From Candidatus Dormiibacterota bacterium (GTDB lineage Archaea > Thermoproteota > Bathyarchaeia > 40CM-2-53-6): 64,000 bases of DNA. The stretch is taken from contig DASPWZ010000049.1 in assembly GCA_035637535.1 (NCBI GenBank), positions 42,539 through 106,538 on the forward strand, written 5' to 3'. Shown piece after piece: positions 3,838 to 40,472 of the stretch; position 1 is the stretch's first letter, and every line of letters begins with the position of its first letter. Made by a program: the position numbers and the translations under genes. Below the pieces are notes generated by a model. It had not been told where the DNA came from and did no database searches. It saw nothing but the letters and a program-made list of their open reading frames with translations.

Positions 3838-5214
3838 ATGGCTGTTCTCGACGTGTTTATAGTGACGCAGGGCCTCCCGTCAATCAAGACTACCCTCGGA
3901 GCTGGAGTATCCGATCTTGAGCTCGTAGTATCAGCATACTCTCTAGTCTATGCCGTCTTCCTGATAACCGGAGGCCGTCTCGGAGACATTCTAGATCGGA
4001 GACGAATTTTTCTGTTTGGCATGACCGTCTTCACAGTCGCCTCAGCACTGGCAGGGTACGCACCCTCGGCCCCATTTCTTGTCGGAGCACGCGCGCTCCA
4101 GGGTCTCGGCGCCGCGTTAATGTATCCACAGGTCTTGTCAATTATTCAGGTCACTTTCAAAGGATCCGAAAGAGCTCTAGCGCTAGGTCTCTTCGCCGCT
4201 ATCAGCGGCATAGGCGCGATCACCGGAAACATCGTCGGTGGCCTTCTCATACAGCTCAACTTGGCAGGTCTCGCCTGGAGACCCATCTTCCTAGTCAACG
4301 TTCCAATCGGCATTTTCGGAGTCTTAGCAGGGTTCCTGGTTCTCCATCCTTCTAGGGCAGAACGAGCACCGAAGCTAGATTTGCCGGGTGTCGGACTGAT
4401 CTCCCTCTTCCTAGTCTCACTGATCCTGCCGCTCGCTGAAGGACAACAGCTGGGATGGCCGACATGGATCATACTACTCCTGTTCGCATCCGTCCCACTG
4501 CTCGGGGTCTTCGTTCTCTACGAAGGCAGAAGAACAGACGCTGGAGCTGACCCTCTGGTCGACATGGACCTGTTCAAACACCGGTCGTTCGCGGTGGGCA
4601 CGCCTCTCGTCATCCTCTACTACGTTGGAGCAAGCGGGCTCTTCTTCACCTTCGTCCTGTTCCTACAATCAGGCCTCGGATTCTCGCCCATAGATTCCGG
4701 ACTCGCATTCGCCGCTATCAACACCGGCTTCATCACAGCATCACTCCTCGGCCCACGACTCATCCCGCGACTCGGCAACCGTCTCCTGAGCCTCGCATAC
4801 GTCTTGCAAGCCGCGGGCTTGATCTGGACAATGTTCACCGTCACCTCCTATGGGACCGGACTCACGCTGTACGAACTAGCGGCCCCGCTCATAGTATTCG
4901 GACTAGGCGCCGGCTTTGCACTCTCACCACTCCTAGGAATTATTCTATCGGGAGTCCCGAGCCAAGACGTGGGAGCAGCCTCAGGCGTAGTCTCGACTTC
5001 TATGCAGATCGGGAACACTGTCGGCATCTCGCTGTTCGGACTACTCTTCTACCGCTTCCTCAGCAGCCAACTATCATCAACCCCCATCTCATACCTAGAC
5101 TCGTTCAAGCTGACTCTCCCCTTCTTGATCATACCATCAATCTCGTCCTTTCTCATAGTCTTCCTCCTCACACAGCATCGTGCAAGGCAGATCATCCACC
5201 GCCTGGAGGCCTGA
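3838..5214 (+). CDS. MFS transporter (DHA2-like drug:H+ antiporter family). The annotated ATG lies inside predicted TM1, and the frame is open upstream to about 3553.
   Basis: Polytopic hydrophobic protein with MFS motifs ('GRLGDILDRRRIF', 'LVGARALQGLGAA'). The upstream in-frame stretch 'LRSRWLILGVVLVGSF' looks like the missing TM1. Confidence 0.7.
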   Translation: MAVLDVFIVTQGLPSIKTTLGAGVSDLELVVSAYSLVYAVFLITGGRLGDILDRRRIFLFGMTVFTVASALAGYAPSAPFLVGARALQGLGAALMYPQVLSIIQVTFKGSERALALGLFAAISGIGAITGNIVGGLLIQLNLAGLAWRPIFLVNVPIGIFGVLAGFLVLHPSRAERAPKLDLPGVGLISLFLVSLILPLAEGQQLGWPTWIILLLFASVPLLGVFVLYEGRRTDAGADPLVDMDLFKHRSFAVGTPLVILYYVGASGLFFTFVLFLQSGLGFSPIDSGLAFAAINTGFITASLLGPRLIPRLGNRLLSLAYVLQAAGLIWTMFTVTSYGTGLTLYELAAPLIVFGLGAGFALSPLLGIILSGVPSQDVGAASGVVSTSMQIGNTVGISLFGLLFYRFLSSQLSSTPISYLDSFKLTLPFLIIPSISSFLIVFLLTQHRARQIIHRLEA

Positions 5215-7280: not shown

Positions 7281-8135
7281 GTGCCAGCGGTACGGAATGC
7301 AAGTTTGATCTCTCCTCACACGACCAGGCGTATTGGAGTAGTTCCTGTCCCGATTTTTGTCGCGCTGATCGCAATCCTTGACATGGTACTTCCCACCAGC
7401 GTAGCGGCAAGTGTAGCCTTCAACCCACTATTGGTTTTCGCGATGCTACAGACCCTGTTCCTTTTTGGAACTGCGGTCGTGGTCGCCTACATTTCTCTGA
7501 AGAGTTATTTGTCTGGAGGTTCGCGGACCATTCTCTTGCTAGGTAGCGGGACTCTGGCATGGGGTTTCGCAAGCATGGTAGCTGGCTGGTTGCTTGGCCC
7601 TCCAGGCGGGCCGAATGTTGCTGTGACCATTAGTAACTCAGGTGCCCTGTTCGCATCACTGTTCTACAGCGCAAGCGCTACAACCACGACGCGTTCAGGT
7701 TCAACAAGAGACTCGAAGTCGCGCAAATCGAAGTTACTTCTAGCCTACGGTGGTGCAGTCGGCTTCCTCGTGGCGCTGACAGTGTTCGCGCTTCTAGGCG
7801 CGACTCCTGCCTTTTTCGTTCCAGGAGCTGGCTCTACGTTGTTGAGGCAGGTTGTTGTAGCGACGGGGCTCTTCATGTTCTCGGCGTCGTCCATCCTCTT
7901 CATGAGGCTGTATCGTGATTCAAGATCAGGGATCTTGTTCTGGTACTCGATGGCCTTAGCTTCGACGACCATAGGGCTGGCCGCGTTCTACTTCGGTAGA
8001 ACTGTTGGGGATCCAATCGCTTGGACCGGTAGGATAGCCACCTATCTCGGAGGAATATACTCCCTCATTGCAATCTGGTCCGCCAGCCGAGGCTCACACG
8101 TTAGTCCTGCCGGTCCATTCACAGCTTCGGTCTAG
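7281..8135 (+). CDS. Polytopic integral membrane protein, unknown function
   Basis: 284 aa with about 7-8 hydrophobic segments. No recognisable motifs. Confidence 0.5.
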   Translation: MPAVRNASLISPHTTRRIGVVPVPIFVALIAILDMVLPTSVAASVAFNPLLVFAMLQTLFLFGTAVVVAYISLKSYLSGGSRTILLLGSGTLAWGFASMVAGWLLGPPGGPNVAVTISNSGALFASLFYSASATTTTRSGSTRDSKSRKSKLLLAYGGAVGFLVALTVFALLGATPAFFVPGAGSTLLRQVVVATGLFMFSASSILFMRLYRDSRSGILFWYSMALASTTIGLAAFYFGRTVGDPIAWTGRIATYLGGIYSLIAIWSASRGSHVSPAGPFTASV

Positions 8136-11855: not shown

Positions 11856-12376
11856 GCCACGTAGCTCTTGTATTCTCCCTCAAACTCGCGGACTATCTCG
11901 AACTTGGGAAGTCTCCGAGAGCGAAGCTCTCCGTGGTGTTGGAAAGTGAGTTCTGGAAACATGACCGCTGGCCCATCTATAGCCAGCTTTGTAGCTGGGT
12001 GGTCGGGTCCTAGGACCCGGGCGCATATCTGACGGGTCAACCTTCGCACCTCACCCTCATCAACGTATCCCAGCGTATGCAGGTATTCGTGGAGAAGAGT
12101 GTAGAAGACGTAGGCGTTGAGGGTCTGTCGATCTTTCGCTATGTGTGTGACCTGGTCTAGCAGGCTTCTGTTCATGACGATGAAATTGGAGCCCATCTGG
12201 TGGAAAGCGCCGATGTATTCCGGCAGATCAGCAAGACCCAGCATCAACCCTGTTCGTCTCTTTCCCAGACTACTCTTGACCGATTTCTTTACAAGCTGAA
12301 AGACTTCTGAGAAGTTGAAGCTCCGGTCCAGTCCCTCCGATACACCTATGCTGGTCGGGGGTATGTCAACGTCCAA
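11852..12376 (-). CDS. Putative small zinc metallopeptidase (HExxHxxG motif; archaemetzincin-like size)
   Basis: 174 aa with 'LLHEYLHTLGYVDEGE', i.e. HExxHxxGxxD/E. The Cys-rich tail of bona fide archaemetzincins is absent. Confidence 0.45.
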   Translation of the reverse strand: MDVDIPPTSIGVSEGLDRSFNFSEVFQLVKKSVKSSLGKRRTGLMLGLADLPEYIGAFHQMGSNFIVMNRSLLDQVTHIAKDRQTLNAYVFYTLLHEYLHTLGYVDEGEVRRLTRQICARVLGPDHPATKLAIDGPAVMFPELTFQHHGELRSRRLPKFEIVREFEGEYKSYVA

Positions 12377-12404
12377 AATTCTAACCTCGAAGATGAACTA
12401 GAGT

Positions 12405-13178
12405 TTGCCAAGACTAGTTTTGGCTGACCGCCTATTTAAGGACTGGATTCCACAGAAATCAATCATGGGACACTCTTCGACTCACACCACAGACGAGTGG
12501 AGCGCAGTTGTTAGAGCGATTGAAAGCGCTCTTCCATTCTACGAGTCGATCAGCGAAATAATTTCTTTGGGCTTAGCAGGACCTCTCAGGCGCAGGGCAA
12601 TCCGTCGACTGGAAAAATACAGAACAAATTGGATTCTAGACTCAGGCACTGGCCCTGGTACAAGTAGTAGGATGATGCTTGAAGATGGATTCGAGAAAAT
12701 CGCTGGACTCGACCCATCGCGAATCCTACTGCGATTTGCGAAAGCTACTCTCGGACCCGGCTTCCATCCAGTGCTCGGGGTAGCGGAAAGCCTTCCCTTC
12801 CGTCCCGATGCTTTCTCTGGGGTCCTCACCTGTTTCTCTTACCGAGATGTTCGCGACAAAGCATTGTCCCTGGTAGAGTTTGCCCGAGTGGTGGATCGAG
12901 AGGGTCGGCTGGAGATAGTTGACGTCGGAAAACCTGACGGGCCGTTCCGACAAAAACTGATTGGGCTCTATGTCGCCGTGCTCATGCCCACGATTGCTAG
13001 ATTCTTCATCAGCGGACGAACGAAGGAAAATCCCTTTCAAATGATCGTTCCAACTTTTCATCAGCTAGCAAAAAATCGTAGCGTCACTCGTTTGGCCGAA
13101 CAGAAATTTGGTCCAGCGAGGCTTTACGAGTTCCTGTTGGGCGGGATGGTAATTATTGAGGCTAAACGAACTAGCTGA
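12405..13178 (+). CDS. Class I SAM-dependent methyltransferase
   Basis: Motif I 'ILDSGTGPGTSS'. Rossmann-fold MTase pattern with acidic motif II/III. Confidence 0.6.
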   Translation: MPRLVLADRLFKDWIPQKSIMGHSSTHTTDEWSAVVRAIESALPFYESISEIISLGLAGPLRRRAIRRLEKYRTNWILDSGTGPGTSSRMMLEDGFEKIAGLDPSRILLRFAKATLGPGFHPVLGVAESLPFRPDAFSGVLTCFSYRDVRDKALSLVEFARVVDREGRLEIVDVGKPDGPFRQKLIGLYVAVLMPTIARFFISGRTKENPFQMIVPTFHQLAKNRSVTRLAEQKFGPARLYEFLLGGMVIIEAKRTS

Positions 13179-13193
13179 CTTCTTGAACAGGGA

Positions 13194-14486
13194 TCAATTC
13201 TTGGTTGTACCCGGAGTGATCCCATGTATCGCGACTGAAATCACCCAGGAGGTCACGTACGACAATATGAAGACACTAATCATAACCACTACTACCCCAT
13301 ACGCCTCTATCCCGAGTTGGTTCAGCGCAGAGACTCCGCCCCCAAAGAATAGCCCGTCCGGCAGTGAAGGGGGCACCAAGCTTCCATTCTGGAATGTTAG
13401 GCTTGCTAACCCTGACACGAAAGCCTTCTGAGCAAAGAATGGAATCATCAGGACACCGAATGTTCCTCCTAGCAAGTGTCCTGGGAACAATCCTACTGGA
13501 TCCGTGAACCATTTGAGTTTTCCAAACCACTTCTCCCCCATCAGATAGAGTGGTCCGCCAAGCAGTCCTAAGACGACGGCGCTAAGAGGGCTAACGAATC
13601 CTGCAAGTGGCGTTATGACGATGAGGCCCATCAAGACCCCGTTCGCGGCATAGATGAGGCTCGGCATCTCCTTCGTCATCTGATATCTGAAGAACATCAC
13701 TGAGAGGAAAGCAGAGGCTGCGGCGAGGAAGGTCGTGAGTACAACCACCATGGCTTCATTGTTGAACGCGAGGACACTTCCAGGGTTGAAGCCGAACCAT
13801 CCCACCCAAAGAAGAAGAATCGACAACGTCAGCCAGGGAAGATTGAGCTTGACCACGACCTGAGGACTAGTTGTCAGTCCCTTCTTCTTTTCTTCCCTCC
13901 AGATTTGAAGGAGAATTCCCAGACCTGCGGCTCCAGCGGCTCCGTGAACCACAAGTCCCCCCGCGAAATCCGCCATGCCCATCTGAGCAAGCCAACCTGT
14001 CGGATTCCATATCCACGCCGCGGGAAGGTTCCAGATGATTATGAAATAGACTATCGAGTAGGCGAAGAAGGCTTGCATCTTCATTTTTCGTAAGACGATG
14101 AGTCCGACGAGGGCAAGGGTGACCGAAGCAAAGGCTGTTTCAAAAAGGAAGTACGTCCCAATCGTAAGCCCCGTACTCTGCTGGGACCACCACGCACCAG
14201 TAAGCAGCCCACTGATGTTTGTTGATGAACCTCCGAGAAACAGCCCAGTGTAGAGTGGATTGCCTATCACGCCGTTGATTGTCGGTGCGAACGCGGTGTT
14301 GAATCCGACTAGGGCCATGAAGAAGAGAGCTGATCCTGTGATGAGCATCGTCTTGAGCAGACTGATCTCTAGATCAGATCCAAGCTCTCCTATCTCCAAG
14401 AATCCGACAGAAATCGTCATGGTAAAGACGAGTAGTCCACATATGATGACCCAGAGATTGTTGGCTAGTAGTACAGGGTCCGCCAC
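13194..14486 (-). CDS. amt: Ammonium transporter (Amt/MEP/Rh family)
   Basis: 430 aa with about 11 TMs and the Amt signature 'DFAGGLVVHGAAGAAGLG'. Confidence 0.85.
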   Translation of the reverse strand: MADPVLLANNLWVIICGLLVFTMTISVGFLEIGELGSDLEISLLKTMLITGSALFFMALVGFNTAFAPTINGVIGNPLYTGLFLGGSSTNISGLLTGAWWSQQSTGLTIGTYFLFETAFASVTLALVGLIVLRKMKMQAFFAYSIVYFIIIWNLPAAWIWNPTGWLAQMGMADFAGGLVVHGAAGAAGLGILLQIWREEKKKGLTTSPQVVVKLNLPWLTLSILLLWVGWFGFNPGSVLAFNNEAMVVVLTTFLAAASAFLSVMFFRYQMTKEMPSLIYAANGVLMGLIVITPLAGFVSPLSAVVLGLLGGPLYLMGEKWFGKLKWFTDPVGLFPGHLLGGTFGVLMIPFFAQKAFVSGLASLTFQNGSLVPPSLPDGLFFGGGVSALNQLGIEAYGVVVVMISVFILSYVTSWVISVAIHGITPGTTKN

Positions 14487-17205: not shown

Positions 17206-19134
17206 CTAACGGACTAATCTCCAAAGGATCAGGATTGTTCCAATGATCCCGATGAGCATCGAGCCGAGATAGTTTCCTAGAAGATAGCCTAGGGGCCATG
17301 CGTAGCTAGTGAACCAGTCCCGCATGTACGGGTTCGATTGGTACTCTGACGAGAGAGCCGCGGACAGACCCAGTATTGTGAGGAATTGGCTGATCACAAT
17401 TGCGCCAAGGGTTCTTCCAATTGCATGAGGTTCCCGAACGATTAATTTTGGAGCGACTTTGATCTTTTTCGGCCTTGGGTCGGGAATTAGGAGAGAGCTC
17501 AAAGCTCCGAGGGAGACGAAGATGCCGGCTGTAAACGCAGCCCACCGGGTCCCCTGAGTAAGCGCATCAAAGATGATGCCTCTCGCGGCAGGCCAATTTG
17601 CACCAAAGCTGGCGATGAGCGATGGGTCGATTCCTCCCGATAATCCCGAATTGAAGGCGGCCTTCAAGATAGCGATTCCCGTCTGGCCAAAATTGACCGT
17701 ACTGGCTGCGAGCTCAGCCTGTCCCACGGTGGATATCTGAGCTACTAGTATAGCCCCAATTACAGCGATTCCGAAGGCTGACCCGATCTGTCTAACGGTA
17801 TTGTTGGCCCCAGATCCTAAACCAGCTTTCTGCCAGGGTATGCTCATCAAGACCGTGCTTGTAACCTGGCTGATCGCCAGCCCAACCCCAGCGCCATAGA
17901 CGACAAGGACGGGATAGAGGTAGTAGACGGGGTTGGAGATGCTGATGATCTGAGACATACTGAAGAGCGCAGCAGCCTCCAGAACCATGCCCGTTGTGAT
18001 AATCCACTTGGGTCCGAAGCGAGTAGCTAGAACGCCGGCGATGGGGGCGAATATGAACACTGAGATAGCCATCGGTAGGAATGTGAGACCTGCGCTGATC
18101 GCGGACAATCCCTTGACCGTCTGCAGGAATATTGAGATGATGAAGACCGCCCCAAACTCGCCCATCGCAACGATTGTAACCGTGAATAGCCCATAGCGGA
18201 AGCCCTTGTACTTGAGTAGACTGAAATCAAACAGAGGCACTCTTCCCTTCCTTGCACGGCGAATCTCGTAGAAAGTGAACACGCCAAGTAGAACGATTCC
18301 GGAGATTATCGAGACCAGAGGGAGCGATAGTGGGTTTGAGTTCGACCATGAGAAAGCTCCGGCAGAGAACTCCTGGTTAGGAACCAGCCAACCATAAGTT
18401 TGGGCCTCGATGAGGCCGAACAAGACACTCGCCAAACCGACGGTGATCAAGACTAGCCCAGGATAGTCAGTCGTGTATTTTGGATCTTTGAAGCGAGTCT
18501 CTCTGATAACTAACGCGGCCCCGACTAGGGCGGCGATCCCAATTGGAATATTGATGAAGAACGCCCATCGCCACGAAACGTATGTTGTAAAGTACCCGCC
18601 TAGGACTGGACCTAGAACCGCTGCCGCTCCTGCCGTCGCGCCCCATATGCCAAAAGCTACGTTTCGCGATTTGCCAGTGAACGTCGTGGTTAAGATCGAG
18701 AGAGTGGAGGGAGAGGCCATAGCTGCCCCGAATCCTTGGATGACTCGGCCCACAAGCATCTGGGATAGATTGAGTGAGAATCCGTCGATAATAGATCCGA
18801 CGATGAACGTGGCGATTCCGGCCATGAAGATCAGTTTTCTGCCGAATTCATCGCTCAGTTTCCCCCAAGAGAGGAGGAACGAGCCGAAGATGAGTGCGTA
18901 GAGGGATGTGATCCATTCTAGATCCTTGAGGCTGATGCTGAAGTCTTTCTGGATTTGAGGCAGAGCGACAATCACTATCGTTGCGTCAATGACGATGATC
19001 GCGAGGGAGAGGCTCAGAACGAGTAGAATGAGGAGCTGCTTAGGCTGGATCTTTCCTGATTCTGATTGTGCGGACTGGGCCGCCGATCCTTCCCAGTTCT
19101 GGCCAGACTCCTTGCCTTGATACTCCCGCGACAT
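17206..19134 (-). CDS. MFS transporter, DHA2 (14-TMS drug:H+ antiporter) family, with an N-terminal hydrophilic extension
   Basis: 642 aa. About 14 TM segments. Motifs 'GKLSDEFGRK' and 'LVGRVIQGFGAA'. Confidence 0.8.
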   Translation of the reverse strand: MSREYQGKESGQNWEGSAAQSAQSESGKIQPKQLLILLVLSLSLAIIVIDATIVIVALPQIQKDFSISLKDLEWITSLYALIFGSFLLSWGKLSDEFGRKLIFMAGIATFIVGSIIDGFSLNLSQMLVGRVIQGFGAAMASPSTLSILTTTFTGKSRNVAFGIWGATAGAAAVLGPVLGGYFTTYVSWRWAFFINIPIGIAALVGAALVIRETRFKDPKYTTDYPGLVLITVGLASVLFGLIEAQTYGWLVPNQEFSAGAFSWSNSNPLSLPLVSIISGIVLLGVFTFYEIRRARKGRVPLFDFSLLKYKGFRYGLFTVTIVAMGEFGAVFIISIFLQTVKGLSAISAGLTFLPMAISVFIFAPIAGVLATRFGPKWIITTGMVLEAAALFSMSQIISISNPVYYLYPVLVVYGAGVGLAISQVTSTVLMSIPWQKAGLGSGANNTVRQIGSAFGIAVIGAILVAQISTVGQAELAASTVNFGQTGIAILKAAFNSGLSGGIDPSLIASFGANWPAARGIIFDALTQGTRWAAFTAGIFVSLGALSSLLIPDPRPKKIKVAPKLIVREPHAIGRTLGAIVISQFLTILGLSAALSSEYQSNPYMRDWFTSYAWPLGYLLGNYLGSMLIGIIGTILILWRLVR

Positions 19135-22566: not shown

Positions 22567-22801
22567 ACAGTTGAATCGAAACACCACCTAGCGGGATTTT
22601 CGAGAGAGCCGAAAATGCTCCTTCTGTTTCGTTTCTATGTTGTACCACGGAAGCCAGAGAAGGAGTCCTCAACCTGTAAGTTCCTGCCACCATCGCTGGG
22701 TCCTAGACCTACATTGCATCCAGAACACGTCCTTCGTTAAGCACGTCTCCCACCGTTTCTCTCTTAAGTACATCTCACACGCTTTTCCAAGTGCGACATT
22801 C

Positions 22802-25201
22802 ATGCAGGTAGCGACAACTCAGCCCGAGAAGAACGTTCAGCATGTCAGAGAATACGATCTGCTCCTCGATGTAGATTTTGCTGGTCTCAAATATAGCGGC
22901 AAAGTGACAGTAGATCTAGAATCCCTCGGGGACATATCCCTCAATGCTGTGGGCCAAGAGATCGACAGTGTGAAGTCCCGCGGGAGCAAAGTCCCATTCA
23001 AACATGCAGGGAAGATTCTAGAGATTCAGACGGGCAAGTTCTCGGGTCCGTTAGAAATAGAGTTCAATAGTAAAGTCTCCGACAACTTCACCGGGTTCTA
23101 CAAGGCATCCTTTGGAGAAGGCTACATCCTCACCACTCACCTCGAAGCCGTCCAGGCCCGCAAGGTCTTCCCTTGCCTGGACCATCCCGCTTTCAAGGCA
23201 GTGTTCAAGGTTAGTATCCGGACGGACGCGAATCTCTCCGTCATCTCGAACATGCCCATCGAATCCGAGACAACGCAGGGAGACAAGAAGACTGTCACCT
23301 TCAAGAAGACCCCGAAAATGTCCACATACCTCCTCTACTTGGGCGTTGGAAAATTCGTACAGGAGAAGAGCCGGCACGGCGGGACAGAGCTCTACGCGGC
23401 CTACGCAGACCGGCCGACGGGAAAGATCAATACAGAATTCTCATTCGACGCCACACGAAAAGTCTTAGACTTCTACGAGTCATACTTCGGCATCCCCTAC
23501 CAGCTGCCCAAGCTACACAATGTAGCTGTCCCAGAATTTGCGTACGGTGCCATGGAAAACTGGGGAGCCATAACCTATCGAGAAATTCTTCTACACGTTG
23601 ACAAGGACACGAGCATCCGGGCGAGAAAGTCGGTAGCTCATGTGATCGCGCATGAGATTGCTCATATGTGGTTCGGAGATCTGGTCACGATGAAATGGTG
23701 GGATGACCTCTGGCTGAACGAGAGCTTCGCGACATTCATGGACTTCAAATCCACTGACCGAGCTTATCCAGAATGGAAGGTCTGGCAAGATTTTGTCCGA
23801 ACATCCACATCCGGCGCGATGGGCCGTGACGCTCTGACCAAGACCCATCCAATAATGGCGAAGGTCCATGACCCCGAGGAGATAGAGGAATTATTCGACG
23901 AGATAAGCTACGGAAAGGGCGCAAGCATTCTGCGCATGATCGAAGCATATATTGGCTCAGAGAATTTCAAGAAAGGCGTCGCTCGGTATTTGCAGAAATT
24001 CCGCTACAGCAACGCCTCGGGTCACGATCTCTGGTCGAGCCTCCAAGAAGCATCCGGGACGGATGTTAGCCGAATCATGGAAGGCTGGATTAGCCAAGAA
24101 GGCTTTCCGGTCGTAAAAGCCTCGTTGGCCGACGGTAGACTGGTGCTTGAACAGGAGAGGTTTCTCCTGACCGGTGGGACGTCCAAGCAAACCTGGCCGA
24201 TCCCTGTTACAATGAATGTTGACGGCAAGACGCAATCGTTATTGCTCGACAAGAAAAAGGGCGAGGTAAACCTCCCAACAACACCACGATCTCTCAAATT
24301 AAACGTTGACCAGACGGGATTCTACGTCGTCCAGTACAATGGAAAGGAACTGCTAGACCTTGTCTGGAAGAGCGGGCTCTCTCCGCTCGACCGTTGGGGA
24401 TTGATCAGCGACGCCAAAGCCTTTCTCCTGTCCGGACGGACGTCTTTCAAAGAATACATCAAACTAGTCGAGAAGTATCAGAACGAGGAGGAGTATCTTC
24501 CCGCGGTCGAAGTCTCCGACCAGCTCTCATTCCTATACCAGATCGCACCCTCAAAACTAATCGAGACTTCCCGCAAATTCCATAATGCTGGCCTCAGAAT
24601 CTTCGAGGGCAAGAAGGACGACAATAGCACCACCCTGAAGGGCATCATCGCCGTCCGCCTGACTCTGCTAGACGATGTCTATGCGAAGAAGGCCGGTTCT
24701 AAGCTCAATGACCTAGCCAATGTAGAGCCGGACATGAAACGATCAGTTGTTATGGGATACGCTAGATTATCAAACGACTATGACGGCCTCATCAGCAGAT
24801 ATACAGAGAGCACGACGGACGAAGAACGACTAAGATACTTGGAAGGATTAGCCAGCTTCAAGAAGCCCGAACTAGTAGCAAAAACACTGGACTTCGCATT
24901 GAGCAGCAAGGTAAAGAGACAAGACGTCCGCAACGTGATCCTCTACGCCACCGCCAACCCAGATGCGAAAACATCCCTCTGGGAATGGTTCAAGAAGAAC
25001 ATGGCAAAGTTAGAGGAGATGTACGCTGGAACGGCCCAGTTCTCCATCATATTACGAGAATACTTCTCGATTGTCGGCGTCGGCCGCGCGGCTGAGGTCG
25101 AGAAATTCTTCAGCGAGCACAAGGTTATCGGAGCCGACATCGCTTTGGAAAGATTGAGAATCTACGACCAGCTCGCAAAGAAGATCGGTGCAACCACTTA
25201 G
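22802..25201 (+). CDS. M1-family aminopeptidase (aminopeptidase N / tricorn-interacting factor F3-like)
   Basis: 'GAMENWG', 'HEIAHMWFGDLVT' (HExxH) and 'WLNESFA'. The start is placed at ATG 22802; the ORF-track N-extension has no homology. Confidence 0.85.
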   Translation: MQVATTQPEKNVQHVREYDLLLDVDFAGLKYSGKVTVDLESLGDISLNAVGQEIDSVKSRGSKVPFKHAGKILEIQTGKFSGPLEIEFNSKVSDNFTGFYKASFGEGYILTTHLEAVQARKVFPCLDHPAFKAVFKVSIRTDANLSVISNMPIESETTQGDKKTVTFKKTPKMSTYLLYLGVGKFVQEKSRHGGTELYAAYADRPTGKINTEFSFDATRKVLDFYESYFGIPYQLPKLHNVAVPEFAYGAMENWGAITYREILLHVDKDTSIRARKSVAHVIAHEIAHMWFGDLVTMKWWDDLWLNESFATFMDFKSTDRAYPEWKVWQDFVRTSTSGAMGRDALTKTHPIMAKVHDPEEIEELFDEISYGKGASILRMIEAYIGSENFKKGVARYLQKFRYSNASGHDLWSSLQEASGTDVSRIMEGWISQEGFPVVKASLADGRLVLEQERFLLTGGTSKQTWPIPVTMNVDGKTQSLLLDKKKGEVNLPTTPRSLKLNVDQTGFYVVQYNGKELLDLVWKSGLSPLDRWGLISDAKAFLLSGRTSFKEYIKLVEKYQNEEEYLPAVEVSDQLSFLYQIAPSKLIETSRKFHNAGLRIFEGKKDDNSTTLKGIIAVRLTLLDDVYAKKAGSKLNDLANVEPDMKRSVVMGYARLSNDYDGLISRYTESTTDEERLRYLEGLASFKKPELVAKTLDFALSSKVKRQDVRNVILYATANPDAKTSLWEWFKKNMAKLEEMYAGTAQFSIILREYFSIVGVGRAAEVEKFFSEHKVIGADIALERLRIYDQLAKKIGATT

Positions 25202-25292
25202 GATTCAATTGTTAATTCTTGGTGTGGCTTGGCCGCTCTTTCGTTGTTCGTGAGACGAGGCAGTGGGAGCTGTTCAGTTAATTGGGAAAATG

Positions 25293-25314
25293 TGGGGAGG
25301 ATTTGAACCCACGT
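25293..25314 (-). repeat. tRNA 3'-end-like fragment: T-arm plus partial acceptor, a decayed copy of the tRNA-Leu 3' end
   Basis: The minus-strand sequence 'GTGGGTTCAAATCCTCCCCACA' shares 'GTGGGTTCAAATCC' with the tRNA-Leu T-arm at 28202-28325. No complete cloverleaf could be folded around it. Confidence 0.35.
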
Positions 25315-25456
25315 CGCGCTCAGCCGAGCCCTCCGTGGACGTTTCTTCATTTGAATTTCTATTTTCGTCGGACATGTTGGTCACCCATGTAATTGTGCTT
25401 GGCTAGCTAAGAACATTCCGGCCGATTTACCAAGTAAGCGACGACGATAGCGGTAC

Positions 25457-25675
25457 ATGAAGTACATGGCCGATGCCAGTCTAGCGCACATTGCTCCGAA
25501 ACTCCGAGACAGAGGCTCAGATTGCGATGCGGTTCAGTTGTTGATGAGGAAGAATGAACACTCTCAAGAGCACATTTCGGATGGCGAGATTGCAAGCATC
25601 CCCAAGAAGGACAAGGTCGCCATCACAATGATCGACTCCGGTATCACCTTCGAAAAGGTAGCCTTGTCTCTCTAA
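25457..25675 (+). CDS. Short PIN-like (Mut7-C / DUF5615-like) protein, possibly truncated
   Basis: N-terminus 'MKYMADASLAHIAPKLRDRG' resembles the DUF5615 start. It is only 72 aa, and no DUF433 partner was found. Confidence 0.25.
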   Translation: MKYMADASLAHIAPKLRDRGSDCDAVQLLMRKNEHSQEHISDGEIASIPKKDKVAITMIDSGITFEKVALSL

Positions 25676-25725
25676 AGATTGCCTAGTCTTAAATACGAAG
25701 AGTCCAGAGTTGGCAATGAAAATCA

Positions 25726-26259
25726 TTGCGCAAACCAAAGATAATGATTCAAATCGGATCGTGTTGTGCCATCCTTGCGGCTCTATCGGTCCTGTCGATT
25801 GGCGTTCCCGTTGTTCACGCGTATGGTAACGCTGCACTTTGGCAGATCGCGCTATCGCAGAACTGCAATAATCCATCCTTCTGCACTCCATTCCAAGGCG
25901 GTTTCTGGCTCTGGGCAGAGTTTGACAGCGACGGTACAGGAGACGCCACCGGTACCGGTTGTGCCCACCTTGTTGCTGGAGGCTCACCAGGAGCGGGCGC
26001 GGACCACTTCAACGCGGATATTCAAGGTTGGACCGTAATGCCCGGCAGCGCAGGACCTCTAACCTTCTTCGTGTTAGGCGGAACCATGACTCTTACTAGC
26101 CATACTGGCGGACCCCCCGTAACAGTCCCAATAGCTCCCCTACCACTTGACACCGGCATTCCCGCCGTAGCTGGTCACTTTTCCACATCAATGATTCTAG
26201 GGTTCACACCGCCGCCTGGCGTGACTTTCGTCATACAAGTAGTGCATTTGACTCATTAG
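25726..26259 (+). CDS. Secreted hypothetical protein (signal peptide; Gly/Thr-rich)
   Basis: N-terminal 'MRKPKIMIQIGSCCAILAALSVLSIGVPVVHA' signal peptide. No known motif. Confidence 0.45.
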   Translation: MRKPKIMIQIGSCCAILAALSVLSIGVPVVHAYGNAALWQIALSQNCNNPSFCTPFQGGFWLWAEFDSDGTGDATGTGCAHLVAGGSPGAGADHFNADIQGWTVMPGSAGPLTFFVLGGTMTLTSHTGGPPVTVPIAPLPLDTGIPAVAGHFSTSMILGFTPPPGVTFVIQVVHLTH

Positions 26260-26572
26260 ATCAGATCAATCCTTCCTCTCCTTTTTCTTCTAATTATTAC
26301 TACTTTGGGACCCCATACAGGGTCCGGTCGTGCGCATACGGGTGTGAGAGGGGACGGTCAACATTATGCGTCAAGATTTGCGCGACTCCGATTTGTTCGT
26401 TCGGGTCCGATTCGGAAATAATAAACAAGCATATAGTCAATTACTAAGCAGGTCAGTGAGCCACCGAGACCTCGTTGACAAAGGCCTAGGCTCCTTGTGA
26501 TTGGAGGCTGGATTCTGTACCGAGATACAACTATTCAAATAGAAGCCTCTCCGGCATTCAAACGCGAACAGC

Positions 26573-26992
26573 ATGCAATCTCAGCAGCAAACTAAAGGCG
26601 AGGTAATCGCCGAGCTACGGGGGAAGACCGACAGCTTCAGCATCAAAGACATCAGTTCTAGCGGTGTCAAGATGGAGAACAACGACGTTGGCCAGATCAC
26701 AGGCAAGTACCAGGCCAGTTTCATGGAAACGATCAGTATCCACGTGAAAACTGACGGTACAAGCGACTGGGAAGGCAAAGGCATCCAAATGGCAGGGCAG
26801 GACATGGTCGTCACCACGAGTAAAGGTCATGGTCATCAAGCCGGTCCAGGAACAATCGCATTCGAGGGAGACGTTCACTTCATGACCCAATCACCGCGCC
26901 TATCATGGCTCAACAACACAAAGGGATGGGTCGAAGGATCAGCCAACCAGGCTGATCAGACGTTCACCGCAAAAGTCTACGCCAAACAGTGA
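26573..26992 (+). CDS. Hypothetical protein (139 aa)
   Basis: ORF with balanced composition. No family recognised. Confidence 0.4.
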   Translation: MQSQQQTKGEVIAELRGKTDSFSIKDISSSGVKMENNDVGQITGKYQASFMETISIHVKTDGTSDWEGKGIQMAGQDMVVTTSKGHGHQAGPGTIAFEGDVHFMTQSPRLSWLNNTKGWVEGSANQADQTFTAKVYAKQ

Positions 26993-27713
26993 CAACACAA
27001 CCGCTCTAACATCCAACTTCTCCTTTTTTTTCGCGGCCTAGAAGAGGTCTGTCATGACGTCCGGCCAATGAACAATCCAGAATTTACGTGGGGCTGTACA
27101 CGTTGTTGTTGAGAATATTTCCCGGGTACCCCATTCTATCAATAGCTGACTCTCCTAGGCACTACCACTTCAAAATGCCACCGCGTGCATTCATAGGTTT
27201 GACTCGGGAGGGGCATTCGTTTCGGTGGAGAAGGATCTCCATGGGATGCGACAATTCGCCGAGATAAGCAAACGTCCCAATGCTTCACGTATGCACCGCT
27301 AAAGGCGTAACCCGGACAACGGCTTCCGATTACTATTGTAACGTGGACAAAAACGTCACTGTTTGATTACCGAAAAAATCTGGTGATAAACAACCCAATT
27401 GGTCCCCACCAACTCCACAATCCTCAGTGATGTTCGCTTTCCTATTGTCTTGAGAGGGACCGCGAACGCATTTGCCTATGCGGTGGTGCTGTTGAGTAAG
27501 TAGAAAAGTCCGCAAACAAATGACAACGGCATGCGGACCTGATTGCTGACGGCGCTCTCTTCCCCTTCGGCTAATACGGTCATGAGGGGAAGAGAAGTTA
27601 GCCAACCCGTCAATTATGACAACCGCGGTCGTCTTTCTCTGTTCCTCCTCTTAGTTTTGTGCACACATACTTATCAGCGCGCTCCCCGCTGGGGATGAAA
27701 AGGGAGGGATACC

Positions 27714-28133
27714 GTGGGCGACAAACGCGATATCGATAGGGCGCGGGCCGAACTCGAACGAGTCGATGCGATGTGGGCCGCAGCCGCAGCCGAGCGTGAC
27801 GTTGAGCGAATTGTTTCGTTTTGGGCTGACGATGCGATCGTTATTCCGCCGGGACAACTTGCTATTATCGGCAAAGATGCAATTCGGGACTACGTGACTG
27901 CGAGCCTAAAGATCCCGGATTTCAGCATTCAATGGAAGACGACTCGGTTTACGATCGCCCGAGCTTGCGACCTCGCGTACGGCGTCGGGACGAACCAAGT
28001 TTCATTCAACGACGAGAGTGGTAATCGATTCATGTTGCGAGGAAAGGCCGTGACTATTTGGCGGACGGAGAGCGGGGGTGCTTGGAAGTGTGTCGTCGAC
28101 ATCTGGAACGACGACCCGCCGCCCGATAAATAG
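27714..28133 (+). CDS. SnoaL-like / NTF2-fold protein (DUF4440-like)
   Basis: 'VSFWADDAIVIPPGQ ... AVTIWRTESGGAWKCVVDIWN' is NTF2-like. Local GC is visibly higher than in the surroundings. Confidence 0.6.
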   Translation: MGDKRDIDRARAELERVDAMWAAAAAERDVERIVSFWADDAIVIPPGQLAIIGKDAIRDYVTASLKIPDFSIQWKTTRFTIARACDLAYGVGTNQVSFNDESGNRFMLRGKAVTIWRTESGGAWKCVVDIWNDDPPPDK

Positions 28134-28201
28134 TGTGACTGTCGAGGGACAATGGAGTCGAGCGAGTGTTCAATGACCAAACCCGGAGCGGAGGGTTTGT
28201 T

Positions 28202-28325
28202 ATTGGTGCGGGGGGTGGGATTTGAACCCACGAACCCCTACGGGACGAGGTCCTGAGCTTCGCGTTCCTCAACCATTCTTGGCAGGGTTGAGTTCTCGCG
28301 CCTTTGACCTGGCTTGGCAACCCCC
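28202..28325 (-). tRNA. tRNA-Leu (anticodon CAG) with a ~36-nt intron at a non-canonical position in the anticodon stem; CCA encoded
   Basis: Manual fold: acceptor GCGGGGG/CCCCCGC. Leu-type D-arm 'GCCAAGCCAGGTCAAAGGC'. Exon junction CGAG|G-CTCAGGA-CCTCG gives anticodon CAG. Long variable arm 'TCCCGTAGGGGTTC'. T-arm GTGGG-TTCAAAT-CCCAC. Discriminator A plus CCA. The intron forms a CTCAACC/GGTTGAG hairpin. Confidence 0.8.
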
Positions 28326-28403
28326 GCGCTGAGTCGAGAGAATTCTGAACTAGTCTGATAAAGCCTTCAAGCCGCGCAGGGATGCAAGCGATATTCTCCC
28401 AGT

Positions 28404-28661
28404 CTATATTCTTGGTCTGATGTGTCTGTATTCTTCGATCTCTTTGAGCCGTTTCTCCCAGTCTCTCATCTGTCTGTCGCGGAGGACCGTGTTGAGTATT
28501 TGGCTTGTGTTCATGTGGAGTTGGGTCCAGCGTTCCCGTGTCTTCAGATCCTTGTCATGGTCAAGCATGATCTTCCTAGACTCTACCAGGCTTTCGAGTA
28601 GCTCTGTTATGATCTGGGTTCGGACCGCGTCTTCTTCTACTGGGTCGTTGTTCTCTGTCAA
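28404..28661 (-). CDS. Hypothetical small helical protein (85 aa)
   Basis: ORF. There is a 2-nt gap to the upstream small ORF on the same strand. Confidence 0.35.
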   Translation of the reverse strand: MTENNDPVEEDAVRTQIITELLESLVESRKIMLDHDKDLKTRERWTQLHMNTSQILNTVLRDRQMRDWEKRLKEIEEYRHIRPRI

Positions 28662-28663
28662 TG

Positions 28664-28936
28664 CTAGGACATTACGCTCCCGTCCGGCTCCTCTGACGCG
28701 AGGGTCATCTTTCGGGCCTGAGCCGCTACCTGGCTGATCGCATCATCCTTCAGAGTACTTCTCCATAGCCGCAGCAGTCTGGAACCTGTGCTGCTGAGCA
28801 GCTGCTTCTGCCCCTGGTCGAGAGTCTTGTCCCTGGACCCTTCCTCGAGATTGTCTAGGACCGCAATGGTTAGCCTGCGAATGTTCACCAGCAACTCCTT
28901 ACGACCAGACTCTCCTCCAGAATCCTCTTCCACCAT
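28664..28936 (-). CDS. Hypothetical small helical protein (90 aa)
   Basis: ORF. First gene of a two-gene unit that ends next to tRNA-Leu. Confidence 0.35.
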   Translation of the reverse strand: MVEEDSGGESGRKELLVNIRRLTIAVLDNLEEGSRDKTLDQGQKQLLSSTGSRLLRLWRSTLKDDAISQVAAQARKMTLASEEPDGSVMS

Positions 28937-29370
28937 TCTCTATCTCCTCTAACGCCTCTTTCATCGGGCGTCACGTCTTGTAGACACGGCAAGACCCGGA
29001 AAACGCGTCAAGACCAGTCTACGAGACGCTACTTCCCAATGATTCTAAGGCACTAGGACGAGAGCCGTTCCTCCCAATAAACGATGTCGTCGAAGACCCT
29101 AGCAGCATACGGAACAGCTAACCGAAGGATACGAAACCGCCCCCAGACACTGAACGTATTCCAACGTCCGAGACAGACGGAAAAATACGTTTTCCAGCAG
29201 AGAAAAAAATTCTTAACAACCCCCCAGGGGCCCATCAAATCTTCCCACAGACTCAAGAAGAACTCTGTACCGCCGACCCAGAAGGGCCGCCTTTCCGCAT
29301 CGGACCCATGAGATAAGGAAGGTGTTAGAAAAAGGGGGTTTGTGTCCCAGGTGGGTCTCGAGAGATATTT

Positions 29371-29658
29371 CTATTTCAACCGTTCAAGTATTATCTCTAT
29401 GGTGGAGACGTTCCGTGCATCCTGGCCATCACCGACAATCTCCGTGCCCAAGTTCACATGCTTCGACAAGCCGCCCTGGAAGAAGCGGTTATTCACCACC
29501 TCAGCCACGTCAACGGCAGTGCTGATGGCTCTTCCACGAGCCTTTAGGGTCAGCTTCTTGGCGCCCGTGTTATAGTGCATCATGACAGCCGTAGCATAAG
29601 CCATGATCGGCTTCTTACCGATCAGTATAGTGTCCGGTGGAATATCAGTTCTACGCAC
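29371..29658 (-). CDS. albA: Alba (Sso10b-type DNA/RNA-binding chromatin protein)
   Basis: 'ILIGKKPIMAYATAVMMHYNTGAKKLTLKARGRAISTAVDVAEVV ... NVSTIEIILE' is the Alba fold signature. The start is placed at an in-frame GTG (MRRTDIPPDTILIGKK...). The ORF-track N-extension to 29847 is low-complexity and unlikely to be real. Confidence 0.75.
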   Translation of the reverse strand: MRRTDIPPDTILIGKKPIMAYATAVMMHYNTGAKKLTLKARGRAISTAVDVAEVVNNRFFQGGLSKHVNLGTEIVGDGQDARNVSTIEIILERLK

Positions 29659-30076
29659 AGGGGCAGGAGCCCTCTCAGTCTTCCTTGGTTCTTCTGACAA
29701 GCAATTCACCTCCGACAGCGCGAGTACGATGTCCGGCAAAACGCCACTAAGACGGAAGACCCCTAAATAGCTATCTGAAACCCGAGATCCCAACGCACCT
29801 CGACCAGACCTCTGAAGCCCCCGGCTCAACCCAGCAGCACTAGACACTCGCTCATTCTCAATCTAGCCGAAACAACCTCGGGAAGACGTCTCGATACCAG
29901 AGCTCAGGAATCCGAGATCCAAACTTCCCGCTAGAAAATGTCTCCTGATTCTGTAATCAAATCCCAGAAAAACTCTTCGCGACTCGTTCAAATTAGCTGA
30001 ACAGGCTACGAATTGTTCCTTCCTTCTTGTTCAAATTCCAACGTTTATCTCCAACGGAAGCATAAGATATCCTTCT

Positions 30077-39900: not shown

Positions 39901-40019
39901 TGGTGGACCGGGCGGGATTTGAACCCGCGGCCTTCCGGAGGCTTGGCTTCGATGTCTGCTTGCAAACCGGACGTTCTTTGGCCTGATGTTGTCAGTATAC
40001 CAGGCTGAACTACCGGCCC
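39901..40019 (-). tRNA. tRNA-Ala (anticodon UGC) with two introns of about 21 nt each, one in the D-loop and one near position 38/39; CCA encoded
   Basis: Manual fold: acceptor GGGCCGG/CCGGTCC carrying the G3:U70 Ala identity pair. D-stem GTTC/GAAC interrupted by 'TACTGACAACATCAGGCCAAA'. Anticodon arm TCCGG-TTTGCAA-[intron]-CCGGA. T-arm GCGGG-TTCAAAT-CCCGC. ACCA at the 3' end. Confidence 0.8.
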
Positions 40020-40063: not shown

Positions 40064-40185
40064 TGGGGCCGCCGCCGGGACGTTCACACCGTGTTGGGGT
40101 GGTTTGAACCCGGCCTCCAGGCTCCACTGGCCAAGGCTTTCTATGCCTTTCAGGCCTGTACGCTACCAAGCTACGTTACGGCGGC
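40064..40185 (-). tRNA. tRNA-Phe (anticodon GAA) with two introns, one after position 38 (~24 nt) and one in the T-loop region (~21 nt); CCA encoded
   Basis: Manual fold: acceptor GCCGCCG/CGGCGGC. Anticodon arm CAGGC-CTGAAAG-[intron]-GCCTG. T-arm CCGGG-TTCAAAC-[intron]-CCCGG. Discriminator C plus CCA. 54 nt from tRNA-Ala, same strand. Confidence 0.7.
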
Positions 40186-40472
40186 CACGAGTGGAGTCGC
40201 TGTGTCTCGCGGAATATCTAAGTTTCCAACGGGACCGGACCGCGAAGAACTAGTAAGAATTCGTTTCAGAGGCGTTTTTCACGCCTTTCCGGTCTCTTTT
40301 GTAACATCGATCTATCCATTTTTACAGAATACGGTAGGGCCTATTTCCATGAACATGATTGAGAGACCGGTGATTGAGTCTCGATTTTTCGTCTGAACGT
40401 GCTCAAGTCATAGGGGGATTTCTGCAAAAGCGCTATGAAAGGCCTACCCATTACGGGCGGTTCCGACTAGAG

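Follow-up and report, generated by a model that had tools for sequence, protein, structure and literature searches.

We analysed a stretch of 64,000 nucleotides (nt) from contig DASPWZ010000049.1 (hereafter, the window), with attention to the interval between an M1 aminopeptidase gene (22799-25201) and a leucine tRNA gene, tRNA-Leu(CAG), on the minus strand. Next to the aminopeptidase stop lie a spacer and a short fragment that resembles the 3' end of the tRNA. Between this fragment and the tRNA lies an island that holds a 72-amino-acid (aa) open reading frame (ORF), a gene for a secreted protein, an intergenic repeat, a hypothetical gene, a conserved non-coding block and a DUF4440 gene (Table 1). 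The host is a soil Bathyarchaeia archaeon. Its aminopeptidase is 91% identical to that of 'Candidatus Bathyarchaeia archaeon SMAG_U11553' (contig L001) and 64-68% identical to those of several Bathyarchaeota metagenome-assembled genomes. Comparator contigs are given L numbers; a scan of metagenome contigs with the aminopeptidase as query returned many relatives at 82-94% identity. With a probability of about 85%, the island (25314-28203) is the remnant of an integrative element that entered the last ~20-31 nt of tRNA-Leu(CAG) by site-specific recombination. The initial annotation had read the locus in this way, and empty sites, displaced tRNA copies, the asymmetry of the flanks and an integrase in the related contig L192 support that reading.

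Table 1. Features of the tRNA-Leu locus in the window (positions without a contig name) and of related loci in comparator contigs
Feature	Location	Strand	Basis or remark
Ancestral spacer, aminopeptidase stop to original tRNA 3' end	25202-25292	.	Length and homology
Decayed copy of the tRNA 3' end, putative attR remnant	25293-25313	-	15-mer, position, flank homology
Inserted DNA (island), 2,890 bp	25314-28203	.	Absent at empty sites, swapped for unrelated DNA elsewhere
72-aa ORF, doubtful gene	25457-25675	+	Partly deleted in L099
Secreted Gly/Thr/Pro-rich protein, 177 aa	25726-26259	+	Hydrophobic N-terminal leader, by eye; no Pfam match
Island-specific intergenic repeat, ~110 nt (…AAGCATATAGTCAATTA)	26300-26460	+	Copies inside islands only
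Hypothetical gene, 139 aa	26573-26992	+	No Pfam match
Conserved non-coding block, 265 nt	27335-27599	+	Shared with L099 and L192
DUF4440/SnoaL-like gene, 139 aa	27714-28133	+	Pfam PF14534, E=8e-11
Putative deletion junction (3.85 kb lost, with the integrase, wHTH-like and PolB genes)	28144-28165	.	22 nt unalignable to L192
Leader from the tRNA to the start of the lost integrase, 38 nt	28166-28203	-	Homologous to L192 12284-12321
tRNA-Leu(CAG) gene with encoded CCA, intact target, attL side	28204-28327	-	Rfam RF00005, ARAGORN -i, typing after splicing
att core, last ~31 nt of the tRNA (TTCGTGGGTTCAAATCCCACCCCCCGCACCA), putative recombination zone	28204-28234	-	Duplications, L166 crossover, L200/L202 repeats
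Non-canonical intron, 36 nt, anticodon stem, between positions 30 and 31	28259-28294	-	Clean stem after removal
Arm+core copies	L002 18083-18117, 19538-19572, 21249-21283	-	
Arm+core copies	L081 13671-13705; L150 934-967; L166 4114-4148	-	
L192 element	L192 8517-12274		Integrase+PolB beside tRNA-Leu(CAG)
L198 element	L198 5340-9947		Integrase+PolB, integrase next to intron-containing tRNA-Ser(CGA)
L200 element	L200 2016-11665		Integrase+PolB at tRNA-Ser(GCT); exact 31-nt direct repeats 9.6 kb apart
L202 element	L202 2477-11650		Integrase+PolB at intron-containing tRNA-Leu(TAG); exact 32-nt direct repeats 9 kb apart

The tRNA-Leu gene was detected neither by default ARAGORN, which reported 0 tRNAs in the 64-kb window, nor by Rfam at its gathering threshold, which gave no match anywhere in the whole window. 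With introns allowed (-i), ARAGORN reported c[28204,28327] and mistyped it as Ala, and Rfam RF00005 applied to the region alone scored 35.7 bits, above its gathering score of 29. Taking out 36 nt left an 88-nt tRNA typed as Leu(CAG) with a perfect anticodon stem (CGAGG/CCTCG), and L082, L084 and L150 carry the identical 88-nt gene without an intron. The complete tRNA-Leu(CAG) described earlier is therefore a real gene, although its coordinates were 2 nt off (28204-28327, not 28202-28325). The intron is polymorphic among close relatives: the window, L001, L081, L085 and L102/L103 have it, and L082, L084 and L150 do not. Compensated changes occur in its hairpin, and the two alleles have different anticodon stems (CGAGG vs CAGGG). 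The window has one more genuine tRNA, at 39901-40019 on the minus strand; folded by hand it is Ala(UGC), and it has inserted nucleotides both in the D-loop and past the anticodon loop. It too was missed by default ARAGORN and by gathering-threshold Rfam, with only a partial match to the tmRNA model (27 bits), and a further tRNA-like stretch may lie just upstream, at ~40100-40190. Both genuine tRNAs of the window carry introns and escaped the default tRNA and Rfam scans, so intron-aware and region-limited searches were needed.

Comparison with relatives revealed both empty and occupied sites. The aminopeptidase stop lies 92 nt from the tRNA in L082 and 85 nt in L084, so that in close relatives the aminopeptidase gene abuts tRNA-Leu, the arrangement that the initial annotation had proposed to look for in syntenic regions. 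At occupied sites in other relatives the distance is 1.3, 1.6, 3.0, 3.5, 4.4 or >10 kb, giving a range across strains of ~0.09 kb to >10 kb, and an identical island arrangement was found on four independent contigs. The flanks of L001 are ~94% identical to those of the window on both sides; homology ends at the aminopeptidase stop and restarts 3 nt past the tRNA CCA, and the homologous flanks enclose 2,995 bp in the window and, in L001, unrelated genes that span 3,544 bp. Compared with L082, L150 has gained ~1.5 kb in a clean insertion that duplicates 19 nt of the tRNA end. The spacer measures 85-92 nt in all relatives; that of the window has an identity of 0.84 to L081 and 0.64 to L107, compared with 0.52 +/- 0.04 for a shuffle null, and blastn aligned it with L107 up to window position 25260. 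From these alignments we count two points as shown, namely that the ancestral order was aminopeptidase, a spacer of ~90 nt and tRNA, and that the DNA inserted within the 3' end of the tRNA, which was duplicated in the process.

The fragment at the far end of the island has the orientation of tRNA-Leu, is separated from the tRNA 3' end by 2,890 bp and shares with the tRNA the exact 15-mer CGTGGGTTCAAATCC. A comparison with the 3' half of the tRNA, which had been suggested as a check, yielded this 15-mer but no significance by itself; the fragment is weak by sequence, and its identity is settled by the comparative evidence. Its distance from the aminopeptidase stop, 91 nt, matches the placement of the tRNA or of its partial copies in L082, L084, L107, L101 and L150. 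The partial tRNA 3' ends of L107, L101 and L150, 87-90 nt from the stop, are better preserved; the L107 copy has 27 exact nt preceded by non-tRNA sequence, a duplication of 26-27 nt. Aligned to this copy, the window fragment shows a 6-nt deletion and then continues into homologous spacer. The sequence right after CCA is a shared ancestral flank (TTT…CCARTTAACTG) at the empty sites and at all displaced copies, and different, unrelated element DNA at the tRNA of every occupied site. As read from these junctions, the difference is the attL/attR asymmetry expected of site-specific integration. A profile search found no further att copies in the window island.

The counterpart of the fragment is mostly deleted in L081 and wholly deleted in L001, which argues that it is not under selection. 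L001 lacks it because a deletion of ~150 nt took both the spacer and the copy that L101, with the same island, still keeps. These losses also bear on the idea that the 22-nt segment is a functional RNA gene, such as a multi-intron or split tRNA or another T-loop RNA, which we regard as barely credible. Intron-bearing tRNAs do escape default scans in this window, and ARAGORN at a relaxed threshold does build a 'tRNA-Leu(caa)' over the segment. That model was rejected, however, as its acceptor, D and T stems are mismatched and it requires a 114-nt intron; the Rfam tRNA model gave no match over the segment at E<=10; and a functional gene would fit poorly with the 6-nt deletion relative to L107. 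The earlier statements that a partial tRNA 3' copy lies here in the same orientation (25293-25313) and that no cloverleaf can be completed around it both stand, the former by position and flank homology, the latter because neither ARAGORN nor Rfam yielded a credible tRNA.

A sister strain provided a junction inside the tRNA. Contig L166 is 99.8% identical to the window over 24103-28227, and then, at a breakpoint inside the T-loop (28227/28228), new DNA begins. Its junction reads …TTTATATGTACTAGTAAACCGGTGTCC joined directly to AAATCCCACCCCCCGCACCA, followed by the window-type flank that lies after the tRNA; the old tRNA end and this flank are displaced, and the window-type island is pushed outward. 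The breakpoint places the crossover within the last ~20 nt of the tRNA. By this comparison, L166 received a further insertion, and tRNA-Leu is a still active hotspot.

The same junctions weigh on a different account, in which the locus is a 'replacement' flexible genomic island whose genes are swapped by homologous recombination in the two conserved flanks, that of the aminopeptidase and that of tRNA/Alba/CDC48, with no site-specific integration and with the fragment as an incidental leftover. Flanks that are 88-96% identical around an interval that is unrelated between strains would suit such exchange, as would the mosaic make-up of the islands, which combine shared modules with the ~110-nt repeat. 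It does not account, however, for the partial tRNA 3' ends that four lineages keep where the tRNA originally ended, for the different flanks that follow CCA, for the 19 nt duplicated in L150, for the L166 breakpoint within the T-loop or for the integrase beside the tRNA in L192. We therefore consider replacement very unlikely as the origin of the island, being largely refuted by the junction structures. Homologous exchange probably reshuffles island content after integration and is not the primary mechanism.

A search for homologues of the DUF4440 gene led to contigs L192-L194, in which a 93%-identical gene lies beside the same tRNA-Leu/Alba/CDC48 flank; in L192 it adjoins a gene for a family-B DNA polymerase (PolB). 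Window segments 27362-28143 and 28166-29783 match L192 at 86%, and L192 has 3.85 kb extra between them (window 28143 corresponds to L192 8433, and 28166 to L192 12284). The extra segment encodes a tyrosine recombinase (PF00589, E=3e-17; phrog_1, 7e-25) that starts 48 nt from the tRNA 3' end, a 222-aa winged helix-turn-helix (wHTH)-like protein and a 648-aa protein that is full-length and intact. In L192 the counterpart of the window leader leads into the PF00589 integrase gene, and in the window the leader ends a few nt before the position of the integrase ATG. By these alignments, the tRNA-proximal third of the island (27255-28203: non-coding block, DUF4440 gene and integrase leader) is homologous to the integrase+PolB element of L192. 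The window island itself has no integrase in any frame by a six-frame Pfam scan and by tblastn with an SSV-type integrase. Beside the att site there remains only the 38-nt leader, which in L192 is followed by the integrase; L081 has an N-terminal integrase remnant (aa 20-70, E=1e-6) after a mid-island att copy. The earlier view of an old, decayed element from which the integrase is gone agrees with these results.

These observations outline a sequence of events. The original insertion restored the tRNA with a copy that the element brought along and displaced the old 3' end, which now decays at 25293-25313; a tyrosine recombinase of the L192 family would have catalysed this insertion. One 3.85-kb deletion, a few nt before the integrase start codon, would then have removed the integrase, wHTH-like and PolB genes and immobilised the cargo; we infer a deletion in the window by parsimony because the leader is shared and no att copy lies at the distal end of the segment. 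The distal half (25314-27254), with the 72-aa ORF, the secreted protein, the repeat and the 139-aa gene, would be either further cargo of this element or a set of older units that were displaced outward and reshuffled by recombination between strains. As this half is a mosaic without an L192 counterpart, it is compatible with one element and with several. L192 carries a homologous element rather than the direct ancestor, since identity is only ~86%.

Another type of integrase was considered as the source. An SSV-type ('suicidal') element carries attP within its int gene, which is split on integration, and the viral contig L163 does encode a PF16795 integrase (12231-13472, E=1e-54) with an exact copy of the 26-nt tRNA-Leu 3' end inside its ORF. 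With this integrase as the tblastn query, however, only tRNA-encoded residues matched in the window and in all related islands, debris of int(N) or int(C) was not found, and the six-frame Pfam scan of the island was negative. The integrase that a relative does have at this site is of the classical PF00589 type, encoded beside att and not across it. We judge an SSV-type origin to be highly improbable. In addition, a contig of a head-tailed virus, L162, carries at 5176-5207 a 32-nt attP-like exact copy of the tRNA-Leu 3' end beside a terminase gene.

The 648-aa protein belongs to a family with 46 homologues. As a single sequence it had no match in Pfam, PHROGs or PDB, and it was resolved as a PolB by the family profile and a structure model. 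The profile matched family-B polymerase structures (1TGO, E=1.3e-6), 7 of 34 family members matched Pfam DNA_pol_B_2, and the motifs DxxSLYP, Kx3Nx3G, DTDS and KxY were invariant, with D452-T453-D454-S455 and K497-x-Y499 as the last two in the alignment. The AlphaFold model (pLDDT 91.7) had its best fold matches among the polymerases of phi29, His1 virus, Acidianus bottle-shaped virus 2 (ABV2) and tectiviruses, with TM values of 0.55-0.61 that refer to the whole fold and not to the individual subdomains TPR1 and TPR2. The model thus predicts that the L192 protein is a family-B polymerase of the protein-primed structural class.

Homologous elements of ~9-10 kb with both an integrase and a PolB were also found at other class II tRNAs (Leu and Ser), in L198, L200 and L202 (Table 1), and the integrases of these three and of L192 are 45-57% identical. 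The left boundary of the direct repeats in L200 and L202, 3-4 nt before the T-stem, is where the identity of the window fragment starts. A search of L192 with nhmmer gave no second att copy at E<=1. The distal tRNA copy of L200 and L202 contains an 18-nt palindrome (TTGACTTCGCGAAGTCAA) between a variable-arm-like part and the T-arm.

Some relatives carry much smaller insertions. An arm of ~20 nt (TTATATG-N4-5-GTAAAC) precedes the displaced tRNA core in six copies from four genomes with unrelated cargo, and its 8-bp palindrome, which abuts the core, has a compensated change (TACCGGTA vs TACTAGTA). The DNA between arm+core copies spans 1.45-1.7 kb and holds one or two unrelated genes and no recombinase; such units measure 1.5 kb in L150, 1.55 kb in L081 (with a NosD-like gene) and 1.45 and 1.7 kb in L002. 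Two of the arm+core copies have a C at the universally conserved U55 position. By their structure, arm-bearing units may be mobilised in trans.

The island, or its distal half, could then be an integron-like array at the tRNA, made of several integrase-less units (1.5-1.7 kb, one or two genes) with attP-like sites, which a recombinase encoded elsewhere would mobilise in trans and whose internal att copies have since been lost. Recombinase-less units do lie between tRNA-derived copies in L150, L081 and L002, the palindromic arm is kept despite unrelated cargo, an arm-bearing unit was recently inserted in the sister strain L166, and the distal modules of the window are shared piecemeal with L099 (25347-25516, 25642-26443 and 27335-27599). 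We nevertheless regard such an array as unlikely in the window, whose island contains neither the arm motif nor an internal att copy and whose tRNA-proximal part clearly came from an integrase-bearing element. The L166 unit may itself carry an integrase, because its contig ends after 470 nt; a homology search with a 62-aa C-terminal fragment from this unit found no match. A donor form of these units was not found in viral contigs, where the arm+core pattern had 0 matches and the arm alone had 24, all by chance and never followed by the core. No recombinase was identified for the arm-bearing units, the window ORFs having been inspected by eye only, besides the tblastn search with the SSV-type integrase. 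Trans-mobilisation is a hypothesis, and the remnant of an integrase-bearing element remains our preferred reading of the window.

Several points weigh against that reading. The sequence of the fragment alone is not statistically separable from any T-arm: an unrelated tRNA T-arm at 39.9 kb scores 31 versus 30 for the fragment, and in a search with a profile built from att copies the fragment reached 9.4 bits (E=0.34) versus 10.9 bits for the unrelated tRNA. The placement of the deletion in the window, rather than a gain in L192, rests on parsimony. L192 is only ~86% identical; no distal end of its element was located, and what lies on the far side is not the aminopeptidase. The distal half of the window island has no homology to L192 and is a mosaic with L099 and L001. 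Every comparator genome is a metagenome assembly, and recombination is read from sequence comparison, not from experiment.

In the first description of the island cargo, two minor points found no support, the PIN-like call and the strength of the GC signal. The 72-aa ORF had been called PIN-like, for which Pfam gave no support (no match at E<0.01). The 177-aa secreted protein is 93% identical to one in the mosaic island of L099. Copies of the ~110-nt repeat were found twice in L001 (13240-13390 and 14810-14935), twice in L099 (14389-14538 and 16237-16299) and once in L101 (3728-3878), with none elsewhere in the window. It brackets a beta-propeller gene on both sides in L001 and L099, and may be a junction for module shuffling. 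In L090, a distant relative, a 54%-identical homologue of the hypothetical 139-aa protein is encoded downstream of the aminopeptidase; an assignment of the hypothetical protein as a diverged DUF3224 protein was rejected for lack of similarity. The 720-nt ORF-free region noted at the outset is real (26993-27713) and includes the 265-nt conserved non-coding block, which is 81% identical to L099 21728-21993, with indels that are not multiples of three, and also occurs in L192 (~7648-8000). Its folding relative to shuffled sequences gave z=-3.25 (0/200) on the plus strand and z=-1.28 on the minus strand, and it had no Rfam match. In the window, L099 and L192 alike, the block lies ~100 nt upstream of a plus-strand gene, and these genes are unrelated.

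Pfam confirmed the SnoaL/NTF2-like gene as a PF14534 member. Its predicted GC richness was borne out mildly (56.4% GC, the 97th percentile of 420-nt windows), but GC3 is inside the host range and there is no signal at the scale of the island, which has 51.6% GC versus 51.7% for the window and so no foreign composition. Across ~12 island variants the cargo is mostly secreted (PQQ-type propeller, NosD/beta-helix and phosphoesterase proteins), together with DUF3224, oxidoreductase, RHH, PIN and ATPase_2 proteins; Pfam searches of their ORFs returned cargo only and no recombinase. The largest variant, in L099, has a 155-aa ORF with a GIY-YIG nuclease domain (17695-18162, E=7e-7), the only nuclease-like gene among the island cargo seen. 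Outside the island, directly upstream of the aminopeptidase, window segment 21297-22418 is only ~70% identical to L001 8381-9474, whereas the surrounding DNA is ~94% identical. It holds secreted cupredoxin-like genes and, from this comparison, appears to be a second fast-diverging or replaced segment.

Taken alone, the window feature is an ordinary genome scar, an immobilised and gutted tRNA-integrated element of a known kind. It marks one tRNA-Leu as a long-lived and still active hotspot in uncultured soil Bathyarchaeia, with strain-level variation that consists mostly of secreted proteins, and it leads to intact parents that combine a tyrosine recombinase with a protein-primed-type PolB, a pairing known in pipolins and barely documented in archaea. 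As intron-bearing tRNAs are invisible to default scans, tRNA-anchored islands in such genomes would be systematically missed.

Earlier work has amply documented archaeal elements in tRNA 3' ends, tandem re-use of sites and short att sites (PMC8371274, PMC6563490). The 'cryptic integrated elements' of Thaumarchaeota, which have classical tyrosine recombinases, resemble the present case in integration at and reconstitution of the tRNA 3' end, short attL/attR repeats, tandem site re-use, decay without an integrase and intron-containing tRNA targets (PMC6563490, PMC8371274). Here, by contrast, the host belongs to Bathyarchaeia, the parent has its own protein-primed-type PolB and the window copy has no mobility genes. 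SSV-type elements likewise target archaeal tRNA 3' ends, and the L163 int ORF holds the same tRNA-Leu end (PMC7253208, PMC8371274), but the locus has no split-integrase remnants and the integrase is PF00589, not PF16795. Family 1 casposons (pPolB + Cas1) are also archaeal integrated elements encoding a protein-primed-type PolB (PMC6563490); they differ in Cas1 integration, terminal inverted repeats and target-site duplications, whereas a tyrosine recombinase and tRNA-derived direct repeats are found here. In Prochlorococcus tycheposon islands, newer arrivals push older ones inward and leave partial tRNAs (10.1101/2020.12.28.424599). These islands share with ours a tRNA-anchored hotspot, partial tRNAs, degenerate elements and strain-variable accessory genes, but they belong to another domain of life and to unrelated elements, and the cargo here is mostly secreted proteins of unassigned function.

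Pipolins, elements with a piPolB and a tyrosine recombinase at bacterial tRNA genes (PMC5695915, PMC11551731), share with the intact relatives the tRNA, the tyrosine recombinase, a family-B polymerase (in the relatives predicted to be of the phi29-like class), variable cargo and a partial tRNA repeat. The pairing of a tyrosine recombinase with integration at a tRNA 3' end is seen from the repeats in L200 and L202 and from the integrase adjoining the tRNA in L192 and L198. A piPolB is recognised by KTRG in place of KxY and by an altered first Asp of the PolC motif YxDTDS (PMC5695915). The L192-type polymerase, by contrast, keeps canonical KxY and DTDS, its host is archaeal, and the window has no polymerase. 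Because its polymerase has neither piPolB hallmark, the parent element is not a pipolin; by analogy, it would work like one from outside the pipolin family. A 2024 survey found 9 piPolB matches in ~13,000 archaeal assemblies, a negligible presence in archaea. The likeness to integron cassettes concerns the 1.45-1.7 kb units with conserved arm and core in L002, L081, L150 and L166, and none of these lies in the window. Tentatively, and at somewhat less than even odds, soil Bathyarchaeia may harbour two undescribed things, namely self-replicating tyrosine-recombinase+PolB elements of ~9-10 kb at class II tRNAs and 1.5-kb single-gene units inserted in trans. If so, the elements would be the functional equivalents in archaea of the bacterial pipolins, without a piPolB and with 31-32-nt att sites in Leu and Ser tRNAs, and tRNA-Leu would be an integron-like cassette platform for genes encoding secreted proteins.

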